Below, piece by piece: positions 15,371-18,998 of a stretch of DNA of 64,000 bases. The first letter of the stretch is position 1; each line of letters starts with the position of its first letter. Made by a program: the position numbers and the translations under genes. Location of the stretch: contig JARBTQ010000007.1 in the NCBI GenBank assembly GCA_029240075.1, positions 28,750-92,749 of the forward strand, given 5' to 3'. The DNA is from Chlamydiales bacterium. Its GTDB lineage: Bacteria > Chlamydiota > Chlamydiia > Chlamydiales > JARBTQ01. The notes under the pieces are model-generated. The model was not told where the DNA came from. It did no database searches and worked only from the letters and a program-made list of their open reading frames with translations.

Positions 15371-17203
15371 ATGGTTAATATTATTAGTACTGATAGTAAT
15401 GCTGCAGATATCATAGCTGCTATTTATTTGGCAGCAGCAAAAATAGACCCAAAGTACAAAGAAGTTTCAAGAATTAAAATAGCCGGTCAAGAAGATACGA
15501 GAATGGCTGATATTATCAAGTTTTTAGAAAGAGAAATTGGAAATACGTATAAATATGATGTTAACCATTTGGATTTATTAAAATTAGGACTTAGAAAATT
15601 AGAAGAGAAATACAAAAAATCTATAGAAAACGCTAGTGTTGCTAAGCGTTTAAAGGGGCTTTTTAAACGTTCGACTAATACCAGATTAAATAACTTAAAA
15701 AATTTAGGACATTTAATTGATCGAATTGAAAAAAAGATGAATGAAATAGCCTCCAAGGCTCAACCAGTACAAGCAGCTGGACAATCTCAAATTGAAAAAA
15801 AGGTGCCTTTTAAACAAAAGGAATTAACAAAACAAATCCCTAAAGAAAAAATAAATAAAACAAAAATAAAAGTGGACCAAGTTGATGCAAAAAAGGTAGA
15901 GCAAGTGATGTCAAGTGCACAGATAGTGCAAAAGCAAGAGATAAGAAAGCCAGTAAAGGTTGAAATAGAGCACGCTACTTCTTCTCATAAAGTTAATGAG
16001 CAACCAAAGAAATTTTCAAATTTAACAACTAAGCACTCTAGAGAAGAAACTAGCTCGAGTCACGAGACTCTGTTAAATTTAAGGAAGAATTTAAGACATG
16101 TAGAACAAGAGAAATCAAGTGGAACAAGTACTATTAGTAATACTTCATGGGAGCAGGCTGAACAGGAGAAGCAAAAAGTCTCTACTATACCTATAGACAA
16201 AAATAAGGGTTCTACTTCGTCTATTAAGGCTGATACATCTAAAAAGGTACCTCCGAAGAAATCTTCTGAAATACAACCAAAACCACAGGCTCAAAATAAA
16301 GATAATATTGAGTCTAAAACTAAGCAGAAGCCCTTTACCTATATTTATCAGAATGGTTCTCAGAAAGTAATTATCAATGCGGATCCTAAATTACCAAGAT
16401 TTAGATTTCTTGATAAAGAGCAGATGCAAGCTCTCATTTCTGAAGAGGGTAGAGGAATAGCAAAATGGTATGCTGAAAAATTAGGAATAGCTCCAGGTAC
16501 TGATTTCACTATTAAGCTTATACCAAAGAATGCTTTCGGAGGAAGTCAATCTACTTGCTTTACATTAGATTTAGGAAAAGATGGCTCCTATATCATAAAA
16601 AATGTTGATGAAATGAGTGAAGGAGAGGCTACAAAGCAGAAGGATGCAGATCAGCTTATTGTGAAAACATTAGGAAGAGAGCAATCTTACTTTGTTACAG
16701 CTCTAGATATAACACCTATCGAGTGGATAAAAGCTAAAAAAGGTTTAGGATTATTGACCTTTAAAAAAGTTGAAGGAGAGCAACTCTATTTAGTCTTAGC
16801 TAGTAAGGACAAAGTTAGAATAAGTAAAGTTTTTCAGGCATTAGGTAAATCCCTTGGAGAGATCCATGTCAAATCTATGAAAGCCTCTAAATCGCTAGAT
16901 GAGTTTTATCGTAGTAAAGGGGATTTACCCAAAGTCCTCGTTCACCCAGACTTTCAAGCTTCCAATATCATCTATACAAATAGTGGAAAGATTCAGTTTA
17001 TCGATAATGGCGACATAAAAATAGAGGAGACACTTGAAAAGGCGTATAAAAATATTCTTGAGGCAAGAGAGATGTTAAGGAAAAAAAACTGTCATGACCT
17101 TCAAGAAGAATTTATGGAAGCTTACCTTGGCGCCTTCGATGAATATTATAGAGAGAGTATTCGTCAAAAGATCATCGATTTAGAAAATATAAATAAGAAA
17201 TAG
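15371..17203 (+). CDS. effector-like protein: shared N-terminal module plus a C-terminal kinase-fold (APH/choline-kinase-like) domain
   Basis: N-terminal residues 1-100 are paralogous to the next gene (DTRMADIIKFL / DTRMDDIIKFL; GLRKLEEKYKKSI / GLRKLSEKYKESI). The C-terminus has YIIKN, LGEIH, HPDFQASN (the HxDxxxxN catalytic loop, nt 16943-16966) and IDNGD (nt 17000-17014). Confidence 0.65.
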   Translation: MVNIISTDSNAADIIAAIYLAAAKIDPKYKEVSRIKIAGQEDTRMADIIKFLEREIGNTYKYDVNHLDLLKLGLRKLEEKYKKSIENASVAKRLKGLFKRSTNTRLNNLKNLGHLIDRIEKKMNEIASKAQPVQAAGQSQIEKKVPFKQKELTKQIPKEKINKTKIKVDQVDAKKVEQVMSSAQIVQKQEIRKPVKVEIEHATSSHKVNEQPKKFSNLTTKHSREETSSSHETLLNLRKNLRHVEQEKSSGTSTISNTSWEQAEQEKQKVSTIPIDKNKGSTSSIKADTSKKVPPKKSSEIQPKPQAQNKDNIESKTKQKPFTYIYQNGSQKVIINADPKLPRFRFLDKEQMQALISEEGRGIAKWYAEKLGIAPGTDFTIKLIPKNAFGGSQSTCFTLDLGKDGSYIIKNVDEMSEGEATKQKDADQLIVKTLGREQSYFVTALDITPIEWIKAKKGLGLLTFKKVEGEQLYLVLASKDKVRISKVFQALGKSLGEIHVKSMKASKSLDEFYRSKGDLPKVLVHPDFQASNIIYTNSGKIQFIDNGDIKIEETLEKAYKNILEAREMLRKKNCHDLQEEFMEAYLGAFDEYYRESIRQKIIDLENINKK

Positions 17204-17270
17204 ATTATAAAAAAATATTTAATAAATAAATTTTTTGTAATTAATAAGTAAAATTTATTGGTATAATGTT

Positions 17271-18998
17271 ATGGCAAACAAAATTACAGTAAGTACGGGG
17301 AATAGTTTTGACTACATCATTGATGCTATCGATAGAATAGCTGACTCTTCAGCAGGGAAAGAACCAACCTTGATTGAGATCGAAGGGAAGTCAGATACAA
17401 GAATGGATGATATTATTAAGTTTTTACGGCAAAAGGTTGAAAATAGAGATGATGCTAATTCAGGGCAGCTGCAACGATTAACAAAAGGGTTAAGGAAACT
17501 TAGTGAAAAATATAAAGAATCGATCAATAAATCTAATTCTAGCAAAAAAACTATAGGACAAATGGAAAAGCTAAGTCGCAGGTTAGGAATTGCAAAGATT
17601 TTCCAAAACCGTAACCTTGCAAACCTTGAAAAGCTAATTAAGAACTTAGAATCAGAATTGAATAAAAATCCTCCGAGACATTCAGTAAAAAAAGAGGACA
17701 GCATTGTAAGCAAGCCTGTTAGCGAAGTAGATGCCTCTGGAAACGTTGCAGCTGAAAGTGAGGACAACGGAGTCAATCCAGCAGGAGTTGAAGAAGCTGC
17801 TCGTCAGCCATTAAAAAAGTCTAGCTCTTATGCTGACTTTGCGGGTGCTGAAAATAATCAACTAGAAAAGGCACCCGAGTTCAAAAAGATAACACCCGAA
17901 GAATATGTATTGCCTTCTTACAAAAAGAAAAATTTTAAGGGTGGAGCTATGGCAGAAGAGCTCACGAACCCGATAGCTATTCTGCAATCCATGCAACAAA
18001 ATATGATAGAAGATTTAATTTCATTTGGTGAAAAGCTTAAAGCTATTAAAGAAATAGATCAAAAATTAAATGAGTTGAATCCAGATAGGAAAAAGAAGAG
18101 CATCCCTCCTGTCATCAAATCGACAGTCGATGATGGAGTGCCACCACCACCACCACCACCACCTGCAGGTAAGAAAAGGGGAGTGATGCAGCAAGGCGAT
18201 ATACCACCTCCGCCTCCGCCCCCTACTTCTGGTAACTTAGGTCTACGGGGTGAAGTAAAGGCTAAAAAAATAACTGCAGCAGAGCGCGAAGAAATTTTAT
18301 TATATAGACAATTATATAAATTGACTGAAGAAGCTAAGATTTTTAGAGAAAGAATTGTTGAACTGTTAAAGTTAGAAAAATCAGATAAATATAGCGATGA
18401 TGATATTATTAATATTAGCAGTCGATATCAGTTTCTTTGCGGGGAAGAAATTCGAAAAATACCTGATAAAAAAGGACTTAAGAAGGTTTCTGAAGATAAA
18501 AAGGTGGACACCGTTGAAATCAAAAAGACGCCTTTTGAAAAGTATAGAGGAGAATTGAATCATTTATTTAATAATTATAAAGAAAAGTCTAGCTCTATTA
18601 AATCTACTATAGATAAGTTTGATAAAACAAAAATTGAATTATCTATGGTAGAATATCGCTTCCTTGAAAAACAGCGTAGAGGTGAGGATGCAAAGAGTGA
18701 CCTTGAAAGTATAATTAGCAAAGAGAAGACCCTGGAAGAATTAGAGAAAAAGATAGAACAGTTACAAAAAGGCAGAAAAGATACTCTTGGGAAATTAAAA
18801 CAGAAGCTAAGACAGATTAATATTGATTCTAGCTCAGACAATGTAGAACAACTAGAAGCTTTAGCTAAAGAGCGAATGGAGAGCAATGGCTTTGTCTTTA
18901 AGGAGGAAAAATCTTTGTTTGATAAAATAAAAAGTACAAAATATGCTCATGAGCCTGAAGCTAATACTGACCCTGCAAACGACCTAGAATGGAAGTAA
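17271..18998 (+). CDS. effector-like protein: shared N-terminal module plus two polyproline tracts, an LKKV (WH2-like) motif and a coiled-coil tail
   Basis: The N-terminus is paralogous to 15371..17203. It has the tracts VPPPPPPPPAG and IPPPPPPPTSG, then FLCGEEIRKIPDKKGLKKV, then a K/E-rich heptad-like C-terminus. Confidence 0.65.
   Translation: MANKITVSTGNSFDYIIDAIDRIADSSAGKEPTLIEIEGKSDTRMDDIIKFLRQKVENRDDANSGQLQRLTKGLRKLSEKYKESINKSNSSKKTIGQMEKLSRRLGIAKIFQNRNLANLEKLIKNLESELNKNPPRHSVKKEDSIVSKPVSEVDASGNVAAESEDNGVNPAGVEEAARQPLKKSSSYADFAGAENNQLEKAPEFKKITPEEYVLPSYKKKNFKGGAMAEELTNPIAILQSMQQNMIEDLISFGEKLKAIKEIDQKLNELNPDRKKKSIPPVIKSTVDDGVPPPPPPPPAGKKRGVMQQGDIPPPPPPPTSGNLGLRGEVKAKKITAAEREEILLYRQLYKLTEEAKIFRERIVELLKLEKSDKYSDDDIINISSRYQFLCGEEIRKIPDKKGLKKVSEDKKVDTVEIKKTPFEKYRGELNHLFNNYKEKSSSIKSTIDKFDKTKIELSMVEYRFLEKQRRGEDAKSDLESIISKEKTLEELEKKIEQLQKGRKDTLGKLKQKLRQINIDSSSDNVEQLEALAKERMESNGFVFKEEKSLFDKIKSTKYAHEPEANTDPANDLEWK
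18141..18164 (+). repeat. in-frame (CCA)7-CCT trinucleotide microsatellite encoding poly-Pro
   Basis: ccaccaccaccaccaccaccacct is read directly from the sequence. It lies in frame within the 17271..18998 CDS. Confidence 0.9.

Follow-up and report, generated by a model that had tools for sequence, protein, structure and literature searches.

Two adjacent genes of a divergent, uncultured soil Chlamydiota MAG (genome G+C content of 35%) raise the question of whether two unlike proteins can be built on a single N-terminal domain and, if so, what such a domain would be for. The genes, referred to here as P1 (610 aa; 15371..17203) and P2 (575 aa; 17271..18998), lie on the plus strand of the window, that is, of the whole 64,000-nt stretch of DNA that was analysed, and both ORFs are present at exactly the coordinates given for them in a preliminary description of this DNA. 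Both products are orphans. P1 consists of an N-terminal module, a disordered linker rich in K, S, Q and E and a minimal kinase-like domain; P2 begins with the same module and continues with an acidic, disordered linker and a pair of poly-proline tracts, its C-terminal half being helical and rich in K, E and L. The preliminary description had held that the two products share roughly 100 N-terminal residues and then diverge completely, and had interpreted this arrangement as that of effectors relying on a "common secretion, chaperone or targeting module".

The N-terminal alignment withstood a formal comparison. BLASTP aligned P1 aa 30-124 with P2 aa 30-131 (40% identity over ~100 aa, E=9e-14), and the Smith-Waterman score of the module, 159, compares with 34.7+-6.2 in 2000 global shuffles (z=20, maximum 77) and with 40.9+-9.0 in local-composition shuffles (z=13), none of the 2500 shuffles reaching the real score. 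The two motifs that had been quoted, DTRM (aa 42-45 in both proteins) and GLRKLxEKYKxSI, indeed occupy identical residue numbers in P1 and P2. At the DNA level, the spacing of the best repeat between the two genes (53 nt, 77%) is 1900 nt, the same as the distance between the gene starts, and the modules are therefore in exact register from residue 1. The sharing thus stands, whereas the length needs correction: the module extends over ~130 aa rather than 100 (aa 1-135 of each protein; 15371..15775 in P1 and 17271..17675 in P2, both on the plus strand), with an identity of 31% over aa 1-29, 52% over aa 30-60, 43% over aa 61-90 and 24% over aa 91-135. An A/T-rich genome with 35% G+C and proteins rich in K, E and I could in principle generate such similarity by composition or chance, and the E-value does weaken to 4e-6 under SEG masking, yet the shuffle statistics refute this explanation, and the common register from residue 1, the conservation of the non-low-complexity motifs DTRMxDIIKFL and GLRKLxEKYKxSI and the DNA repeat at the exact gene-start spacing all contradict it; we consider it practically excluded. 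P1 and P2 are paralogues. Past the module they do part company, the kinase-like domain of P1 having no counterpart in P2 (z=-1.1). The P1 linker displays marginal, out-of-register similarity to the helical region of P2 (z~3.9), which leaves open that part of the sequence downstream of the module may also be ancestral to both proteins.

Profile searches had been suggested as a way to uncover other members of the family. No further copy of the module was found by an exhaustive HMMER search of 1.84 billion cluster representatives, which stand for about 15 billion proteins, in DNA scans of GTDB representative genomes or JGI metagenome contigs, or in a full-sensitivity search of ~70 kb of the source contig. 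The sole other HMMER match, P0003, is an A/K/E-rich repeat protein whose similarity is confined to the helical tail. Nor did the module match any entry of Pfam, NCBIfam, PDB sequences or PDB folds, be it a housekeeping domain, which the preliminary description had named as one finding that would speak against its proposal, or any other known domain. Judging from these searches, it is a new, orphan N-terminal domain that occurs in no other known protein beyond P1 and P2. With exactly two carriers, encoded by adjacent genes, we reject a leader widely used across an effector repertoire; none is needed, because local tandem duplication explains how the module came to be shared. The AlphaFold model of the P1 module (pLDDT 70, pTM 0.60) comprises a strand (aa 4-7), a helix (aa 11-23), a second strand (aa 34-37), a helix (aa 45-58) and two long helices (aa 64-91 and 98-130), the last two being net basic (+2 and +6 per 30 aa). 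As modelled, the module folds into a compact unit whose first ~25 residues (the strand and helix of aa 4-23) are predicted to be structured, not disordered.

Downstream of the module, P1 possesses a low-complexity linker (aa 136-330; 15776..16360, plus strand; K 18%, S 12%, Q 10%, E 9%) and a putative kinase-like domain (aa ~331-610; 16361..17200, plus strand), recognised by ordered motifs and profile matches. The catalytic motifs are all present, in kinase-like order and spacing: the G-loop FGGSQS (aa 389-394; 16535-16552), a VAIK-like lysine, Lys410, within YIIK (16598-16600), the hinge KKVEGEQL (aa 465-472; 16763-16786), the catalytic loop HPDFQASN, corresponding to HxDxxxxN (aa 525-532; 16943-16966), and the metal-binding IDNGD with its DFG-like Asp (aa 544-548; 17000-17014), each on the plus strand. 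Since ~65 aa alone remain past the DFG-equivalent Asp, the domain would be a minimal kinase. The NCBIfam model TIGR03724 (arch_bud32) matched with E=1.8e-6, three further Bud32 models with 7e-4 to 6e-3, and APH(3'), Pfam APH, Choline_kinase and ABC1 with 0.02-0.08, all kinase-family matches coinciding on aa ~518-607. Motifs and profiles together support membership of the protein-kinase-like superfamily (Bud32/RIO/APH-like), at superfamily level and no finer, and so the kinase-fold domain announced for one of the two products is upheld by its sequence alone. A single-sequence AlphaFold2 model of this domain was unusable (pLDDT 36, pTM 0.22), and no homologues were found from which an alignment could be built. 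P1 is not a Bud32 (KEOPS) orthologue: it scores 27.6 bits where the family cut-off is 125, and the gene is bacterial, encodes an N-terminal extension of 330 aa and has no Kae1 neighbour; orthology to APH was likewise rejected, with scores far under every family cut-off. When P1 was compared with a variant from a second soil strain, the kinase domain showed 6 non-synonymous and 14 synonymous SNPs, whereas the counts for the linker were 8 and 2 (Fisher p=0.019). All five SNPs at aa 515-537 are synonymous, and the codons of H525 and P526 have undergone synonymous changes alone. The P1 kinase domain is under constraint at the protein level.

The most conspicuous feature of P2 is a pair of poly-proline tracts, P8 (aa 291-298) and P7 (aa 312-318), with AGKKRGVMQQGDI between them (18141..18224, plus strand); no other ORF of the window contains a run of four or more prolines. 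The tracts had been correctly recognised, and the coiled coil claimed for the same product is plausible, its C-terminal half being a helical, possibly coiled-coil region (aa 325-575; 18243..18995, plus strand) that is K/E/L-rich with a patchy heptad signal. By eye, the string EEIRKIPDKKGLKKV (aa 392-406; 18444-18488, plus strand) resembles WH2, and the C-terminus (...NDLEWK) resembles a C-A (acidic, Trp) Arp2/3-binding tail. Pfam WH2 gave no match in P2 at E<=10, and phmmer searches with the WH2-like and tail segments against the PDB, which includes many WH2 and VCA complexes, retrieved designed repeat proteins and poly-Pro compositional matches alone. These searches thus lent no support to P2 as a WH2/VCA-type actin regulator, the hydrophobic spacing of the helix and its 170-aa distance to the tail also being atypical; one trait of such regulators, a proline-rich region, is present (P8, P7).

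Both genes are preceded by strongly A/T-rich DNA, as had been observed (84-93% A+T, against a mean of 64.6% for the window and 70.9% for its intergenic regions). The 100 nt located 5' of P1 (15271..15370, plus strand) are 84% A+T and form part of a divergent intergenic region common to nusB; over the last 67 nt the value is 88.1%, joint third with yicC among the 43 genes of the window. The 67-nt spacer between P1 and P2 (17204..17270, plus strand), at 92.5% A+T, ranks first among the same genes and contains no significant RNA structure. A perfect 12-bp hairpin with a GCAA loop (19031..19058, plus strand; dG -20.5 kcal/mol, z=-6.6), located 32 nt past the P2 stop and not followed by a T-run, likely marks the 3' end of a P1-P2 transcription unit. 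The immediate neighbours of the pair are nusB and yicC, and housekeeping genes (nusB, murB, yicC, gmk and metG) flank it on both sides. The pair is located at a synteny breakpoint: the yicC-gmk-metG block that follows it is kept in eight chlamydial MAG loci, where the region upstream of the block is occupied by ffh-rpsP-trmD-rplS-rnhB or by other genes and no relatives of P1 or P2 are present. The neighbourhood also holds F-box, Ank and TPR genes together with several large orphan genes, and gene content of the F-box/Ank/TPR type has been described for amoeba-associated chlamydiae (PMC4209131).

The phylum to which this MAG belongs relies on T3SS effectors (PMC2669295). The two proteins were inspected for signs of secretion. 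By a crude, EffectiveT3-style proxy of N-terminal composition (Ser/Thr/Pro enriched; Leu/Asp/Glu/Ala/basic depleted; PMC2669295), P2 ranks 3rd and P1 14th among 33 window proteins; the first 25 residues of P1 are Ala-rich, a class depleted among known type III signals (PMC2669295). TM segments and Sec signal peptides are absent from both proteins. Their maximum 19-residue Kyte-Doolittle means are 1.21 (P1) and 0.58 (P2), and with these values and no bilobed hydrophobic domain of about 40-60 residues neither qualifies as an Inc protein. No small acidic chaperone-like ORF adjoins the pair, which says little because the genes for chlamydial chaperones, that of Slc1 for example, tend to lie elsewhere. 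The export-apparatus genes of the window (flhB, flhA, flhF and fliA) are flagellar-type, FlhB (383.6 bits) and FlhA (874.7 bits) scoring over their cut-offs and the SctU and SctV models under theirs, and the window contains no injectisome genes. An injectisome is conserved across known Chlamydiota and is presumably encoded elsewhere in this genome. Chlamydial effector genes are scattered and not clustered with the T3SS (PMC2669295), so that missing adjacent apparatus genes are not evidence against secretion. The architecture put forward in the preliminary description consequently holds, the word "common" does not, there being two carriers alone, and a role of the module in secretion, chaperone binding or targeting is only circumstantially supported.

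Comparable architectures are known among type III effectors with shared N-termini, such as the "terminal reassortment" chimeras of Pseudomonas syringae and Xanthomonas, Salmonella SspH2/SseI and related SPI-2 effectors, which have ~100-140 N-terminal residues in common, and ExoS/ExoT (PMC3417404); PMC3136466 cites the concept. Like these effectors, P1 and P2 combine a homologous N-terminal ~130 aa with different cargo, and each gene has its own A/T-rich upstream region. Unlike them, they carry a module that is confined to two adjacent genes, gives no sign of circulation among effectors and lacks sequence similarity to the N-terminal regions of the known ones. Shared membrane-localisation domains offer a second parallel, namely the BteA-like lipid-raft-targeting N-terminal 130 aa and the 4-helix-bundle MLD (4HBM; PMC3417404): the P1/P2 domain is likewise helical, ~100-130 aa long and joined to different functional domains, and its predicted long helices are basic, but it has no sequence match and no significant Foldseek match to 4HBM, BteA or any fold (best E=0.81, TM<=0.45). 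The kinase-like domain of P1 resembles HopBF1, a minimal atypical kinase akin to protein kinases and aminoglycoside phosphotransferases (PMC9950578), as well as OspG/NleH and Bud32/RIO/APH, in being small (~235-280 aa) and without a long C-lobe and activation segment, and shares with minimal kinases an intact HxDxxxxN, DFG-like Asp, VAIK-like Lys and Gly-rich loop. It differs from all of them in its ~330-aa N-terminal extension (module and linker), and phmmer searches of the PDB revealed no resemblance to any chain of HopBF1, OspG or NleH. As for P2, proline-rich regions are used in host actin and endocytic manipulation by the chlamydial T3SS effectors TarP, composed of a PRD and a WH2-like actin-binding helix, and SemD/CPn0677, with an amphipathic helix, two PRRs and two WH2 (PMC2904776, PMC10182996). 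P2 is similarly chlamydial and largely disordered or helical, with two close proline-rich tracts and then helical segments; it nevertheless lacks sequence homology to either, Pfam and PDB lend no support to its WH2-like string and acidic/Trp tail, and its tracts, in contrast to the TarP PRD, are pure poly-Pro (P8, P7), closer to formin FH1 or to profilin ligands.

The reading that we favour, and to which we give about an even chance, is that the two genes are tandem paralogues specific to this lineage and probably encode host-directed effectors, which kept the N-domain as a common handle while their cargo differs. An ancestral gene would have been duplicated in place, both copies retaining the ~130-aa N-terminal domain in exact register, and the unrelated downstream parts would presumably have come by fusion or replacement ("terminal reassortment") rather than by simple divergence. 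We think it most likely that both proteins are delivered into a eukaryotic host. There, P1 would phosphorylate a host substrate as a minimal Bud32/RIO/APH-like kinase, and P2 would be a scaffold, its poly-proline tracts engaging host profilin or SH3/WW/EVH1-type domains and its helical half mediating oligomerisation or partner binding. The shared N-domain may serve as an export handle (secretion signal plus chaperone- or apparatus-binding) and/or direct both proteins to the same host compartment or partner. What makes a host-directed role most likely is the combination of poly-proline tracts, a minimal kinase that stands alone and long disordered linkers with the position of these orphans at a breakpoint and the neighbourhood of F-box, Ank, TPR and large orphan genes. 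It seems rather unlikely that the paralogues are intrabacterial and not secreted, the N-domain being a lineage-specific regulatory, oligomerisation or partner-binding domain, P1 a signalling or small-molecule kinase (APH/choline-kinase-like) and P2 a structural or coiled-coil protein of, for example, development or division. A predicted structured N-terminus, the failure to find a clear T3S signal, small-molecule kinases (APH, choline kinase) among the matches of P1 and housekeeping flanking genes would all suit such proteins, as would the presence of the module in two proteins alone, which therefore provides no tie to a secretion pathway. Runs of eight and seven prolines, on the other hand, are typical of eukaryotic interaction motifs and host-directed effectors and are unique in the window, each protein has a disordered, fast-evolving linker of ~150-200 aa, and other chlamydiae have no orthologue despite conserved downstream synteny; a protein of core bacterial physiology would usually be conserved across its order at the least.

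Secretion could also be combined with a different task for the module: the signal would lie in the first ~15-20 residues, and the N-domain would work inside the host cell, bringing the two cargos to one and the same membrane, organelle or host protein, in the manner of the BteA lipid-raft-targeting domain, the 4HBM domains or the N-terminal ~100 aa of SspH2/SseI. A compact folded module (pTM 0.60) with basic helices, as modelled, is more in keeping with a localisation domain than with a chaperone-binding region, which would be unfolded, and there are well-documented cases of one N-terminal localisation domain occurring with different catalytic domains (PMC3417404). We nevertheless regard this possibility as unlikely, given that the module shares neither sequence nor fold with known localisation domains and has no markedly hydrophobic amphipathic membrane helix (maximum 19-residue hydropathy of 1.21). 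A conserved N-terminus with a variable C-terminus is also the formal architecture, and the only point in favour, of a polymorphic-toxin or contact-dependent competition locus, with an N-terminal trafficking domain, swapped C-terminal toxins and immunity genes (PMC3482391). Against it, Pfam and NCBIfam revealed no LXG, MIX, PAAR, RHS, DUF4150 or other trafficking domain, no small immunity ORF follows either gene (P1 being succeeded by the 67-nt spacer and P2 by the hairpin and then yicC), and the C-terminal parts are kinase and poly-Pro/helical, not nuclease, deaminase or pore toxins. The organism is, moreover, an obligate intracellular chlamydia. Such a locus is highly improbable here.

The tandem effector paralogues that we favour admit a more far-reaching version, which is speculative and which we hold with little confidence. 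In the N-domain, a deep-branching lineage of soil chlamydiae would have a new domain for delivery or targeting, and P1 and P2 would be coupled effectors acting at the same host site, P2 as a profilin/SH3-engaging scaffold, possibly a new actin-assembly factor, and P1 as a Bud32-like minimal kinase modifying the same host machinery. If this were true, the pair would represent an early stage of effector birth through duplication and C-terminal replacement.

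The tandem genes P1 (15371-17203, forward strand, 610 aa) and P2 (17271-18998, forward strand, 575 aa) were recovered unchanged as first-ATG ORFs, matching the genes annotated publicly for the source contig, in a window whose G+C content is 34-40%. The N-terminal module that the preliminary description had attributed to both products is clearly detectable: aa 30-124 of P1 and aa 30-131 of P2 are 40% identical (BLASTP, E=9e-14; 4e-6 under SEG masking), and the first 135 residues reach a Smith-Waterman score of 159, far above those of 2000 shuffles (34.7±6.2; z=20) and of shuffles preserving local composition (40.9±9.0; z=13). 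The alignment begins at residue 1, the DTRM motif occupies aa 42-45 in both proteins, and identity is highest over aa 30-60 (52%) and aa 61-90 (43%), fading by aa ~130. The gene starts lie 1900 nt apart, a spacing matched by the best DNA repeat copies (53 nt, 77% identity). Downstream of the module the proteins diverge, as had been claimed, with no trace in P2 of the kinase-like domain of P1 (alignment against shuffles, z=-1.1). A stretch of the P1 linker (aa 158-250; 15842-16120) resembles the helical region of P2 (aa 437-522; 18579-18836) out of register, with 28% identity and E=0.008. This likeness is marginal against local-composition shuffles (z~3.9) and could reflect residual homology or K/E-rich helical periodicity.

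In P1, the module is followed by a K/S/Q/E-rich low-complexity linker (aa ~136-330) and a putative kinase-like domain (aa ~331-610). The kinase fold previously proposed for this protein is supported by profile matches and ordered motifs: the domain alone matches the NCBIfam model arch_bud32 (E=1.8e-6), its catalytic segment is also matched by three other Bud32 models, APH(3'), Pfam APH, Choline_kinase and ABC1, and the canonical motifs occur in order (FGGSQS 389-394, K410, hinge 465-472, HPDFQASN 525-532 and IDNGD 544-548). All of these profile scores are far below orthologue cut-offs, and a single-sequence AlphaFold2 model of the domain reached a pLDDT of 36. The chain ends ~65 residues past the DFG-equivalent Asp, which we take to make this a minimal kinase of Bud32/RIO size. 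A variant of the locus, ~97-98% identical, is present in a second soil run (X2). It shows 8 non-synonymous to 2 synonymous changes in the P1 linker, whereas the kinase domain has 6 non-synonymous to 14 synonymous ones (Fisher p=0.019); the five changes that fall near the catalytic loop (aa 515-537) are all silent. Small as the sample is, the contrast points to purifying selection on the kinase domain and to none on the linker. The same run contains a 227-nt contig ~85% identical to part of the kinase domain (window 16642-16847), with 6 non-synonymous and 9 synonymous differences, while fragments from other parts of the locus are ~97-98% identical; it suggests that a more diverged P1 relative is present in the sample.

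P2 continues from the module into an acidic, disordered linker, polyproline tracts and a K/E/L-rich helical half. The tracts, which the preliminary description had reported, are a P8 and a P7 and represent the sole poly-Pro runs among all ORFs of the window. By eye, the string EEIRKIPDKKGLKKV at aa 392-406 resembles a WH2 motif, and the C-terminus (...NDLEWK) forms an acidic/Trp tail recalling VCA domains. The Pfam WH2 model does not match P2, and phmmer searches of P2 segments against the PDB, which holds many WH2 and VCA complexes, yielded nothing but designed repeat sequences and matches due to poly-Pro composition; on this ground we do not classify P2 as a WH2/VCA or NPF protein. A match to BimA_second (E=0.25-0.36) is likewise poly-Pro compositional. 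Hydropathy indicates neither a transmembrane segment nor a Sec-type signal in P1 or P2, and their reading as Inc proteins or Sec substrates was rejected on this basis.

The N-terminal module itself does not correspond to any known housekeeping domain, having no Pfam, NCBIfam or PDB-sequence match. Weak Pfam and NCBIfam matches (ORC6, F-actin capping beta, DUF2721, Sec20, HscB and others) were regarded as noise because none was common to both paralogues and all were below cut-off. A two-sequence AlphaFold2 model, of moderate confidence (pLDDT 70, pTM 0.60), predicts a structured N-terminus and comprises a strand (4-7), a helix (11-23), a second strand (34-37), a helix (45-58) and two long helices (64-91 and 98-130). 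Foldseek comparison of this model with the PDB yielded nothing significant (best E=0.81), and the matches to 14-3-3, BAG and syntaxin (E>=0.8) were dismissed as generic helical proteins. In an exhaustive HMMER profile search, covering about 15 billion proteins through 1.84 billion representatives, the only carriers were P1 and P2, plus one spurious protein (P0003, E=6e-6), an A/K/E-rich triple-repeat sequence that was rejected because its match, confined to profile positions 91-140, misses the conserved core of the module. Word-index searches with full-length P1, the module alignment and the kinase domain gave no match other than P1; the low-complexity linker probably saturated the full-length P1 candidates, and the module query missed its own proteins. 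DNA-level scans with module and kinase-domain peptides found no relatives in 185,579 representative genomes and JGI metagenome contigs, collections that apparently lacked the source contig itself, and on the accessible ~70 kb of that contig, a filter-free HMM search run over every six-frame ORF found no further copy. The pair forms a new family of two members, restricted to one lineage and familiar in its modular architecture.

The locus was found on a 93.9-kb JGI metagenome contig and in one soil-metagenome run. The closest orthologues of its YicC are from chlamydial MAGs, at just 37-44% identity. The order yicC-gmk-metG is kept in 8/8 chlamydial MAGs and the genes upstream vary (ffh-rpsP-trmD-rplS-rnhB or others), with no P1- or P2-like sequence in any of the eight syntenic loci. 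The pair, lying between nusB and yicC, is therefore an acquisition specific to this lineage, placed where synteny breaks. In the gmk-metG interval, a 118-aa ORF (20752-21108, forward strand), with no Pfam match on record, has a long, acidic C-terminal tail, DDDDSYDDDDDDDE.

Both genes do have the A/T-rich upstream regions ascribed to them: the last 67 nt are 92.5% A+T for P2, ranking first of 43 genes, and 88.1% for P1, against an intergenic mean of 70.9%. No common motif was found in the two regions, which align through A/T richness alone, and a sigma-70 scan gave 17 sites versus 16.7 in shuffles; a common promoter or leader was accordingly dropped. A perfect 12-bp hairpin with a GCAA tetraloop (19031-19058, forward strand; dG -20.5 kcal/mol, z=-6.6) lies 32 nt past the P2 stop, and was missed by the terminator scan because no T-run follows it. 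Together with a spacer predicted to be unstructured as RNA, this 3' hairpin fits a single two-gene unit; none of the RNA runs queried for the locus contains it.

A second local duplication in the window gave tandem paralogues of a MarC-family membrane protein (32288-32899 and 32921-33541, both reverse strand; 37% identity, E=1e-25). Two giant orphan proteins of 2012 and 2096 aa (window 1-1517, from a gene that begins upstream of the window and spans L085 1506-7544, and 54189-60479, both forward strand) have no Pfam match and are distant paralogues (23% identity over 450 aa, E=1e-24). Further large orphan genes without Pfam match lie at 3974-6088, 6439-8352 and 50939-53773 (forward strand; 704, ~634 and 944 aa). 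The 67 nt upstream of the latter two are 91% and 84% A+T, resembling P1 and P2; the module is absent from all three. Eukaryote-like domain proteins comprise two F-box proteins (44262-46007 and 49211-50668, reverse strand), a TPR protein (46825-48909, forward strand) and a small ankyrin-repeat protein (~25474-25761, reverse strand), a set typically found in protist-associated chlamydiae (PMC4209131) and one that speaks for a life with a host.

The most parsimonious history of the pair is a tandem duplication that would have kept the N-terminal domain in register, after which the downstream part would have been replaced or fused anew; the kinase domain has left no trace in P2. As to function, we favour P1 and P2 as candidate host-directed effectors, a reading whose chances we put at about even. 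It draws on the polyproline tracts, eukaryotic interaction motifs used by the chlamydial entry effectors TarP and SemD (PMC2904776, PMC10182996); on the recurrence of stand-alone minimal kinases as effectors (PMC9950578); on the long disordered linkers, lack of orthologues and own A/T-rich upstream regions of both genes; and on the dispersal of chlamydial effector genes among housekeeping genes (PMC2669295). A serious, though less likely, rival is that the pair acts inside the bacterium. A composition proxy for type III secretion signals ranked P2 third and P1 14th among 33 window proteins, and the N-terminus is predicted to be folded. No chaperone gene adjoins P1 or P2, and the export cluster of the window (36673-42799, forward strand) cannot be cited as an injectisome because NCBIfam scores place it in the flagellar type: flhB (383.6 bits, cut-off 349) and flhA (874.7 bits, cut-off 772) exceed their cut-offs, the SctU and SctV models remain below theirs, and downstream lie an flhF-like GTPase, a 107-aa ORF and fliA/sigma-28. 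On these scores the cluster's FHIPEP and Bac_export_2 genes do not count as evidence for an injectisome. Flagellar gene sets have been reported for marine chlamydiae (PMC5604735); the present lineage comes from soil.

The effector-pair interpretation proposed earlier is supported in part: the modular architecture stands, with copies found only in P1 and P2, and the putative secretion or targeting role has circumstantial support. On the effector reading, the N-terminal domain may serve as a common handle for export and/or co-targeting in the host, much like the N-terminal domains of BteA, 4HBM or SspH2/SseI (PMC3417404). Practical value is limited, as the organism has not been cultured and its record comes from two soil metagenomes; the architecture has precedent, and homologues that could support structural or evolutionary inference are lacking. 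An effector-birth history is nevertheless plausible. If P1 and P2 are effectors, P1 would join the small group of atypical effector kinases as a Bud32/RIO-like minimal kinase, and the N-terminal domain would be a new sequence family whose two differing cargos suit the study of export, chaperone binding or host targeting. The pair would then be a clean natural case of effector-making by local duplication, with the N-terminal handle kept and the cargo replaced, in an obligate intracellular bacterium from a barely sampled soil chlamydial lineage.
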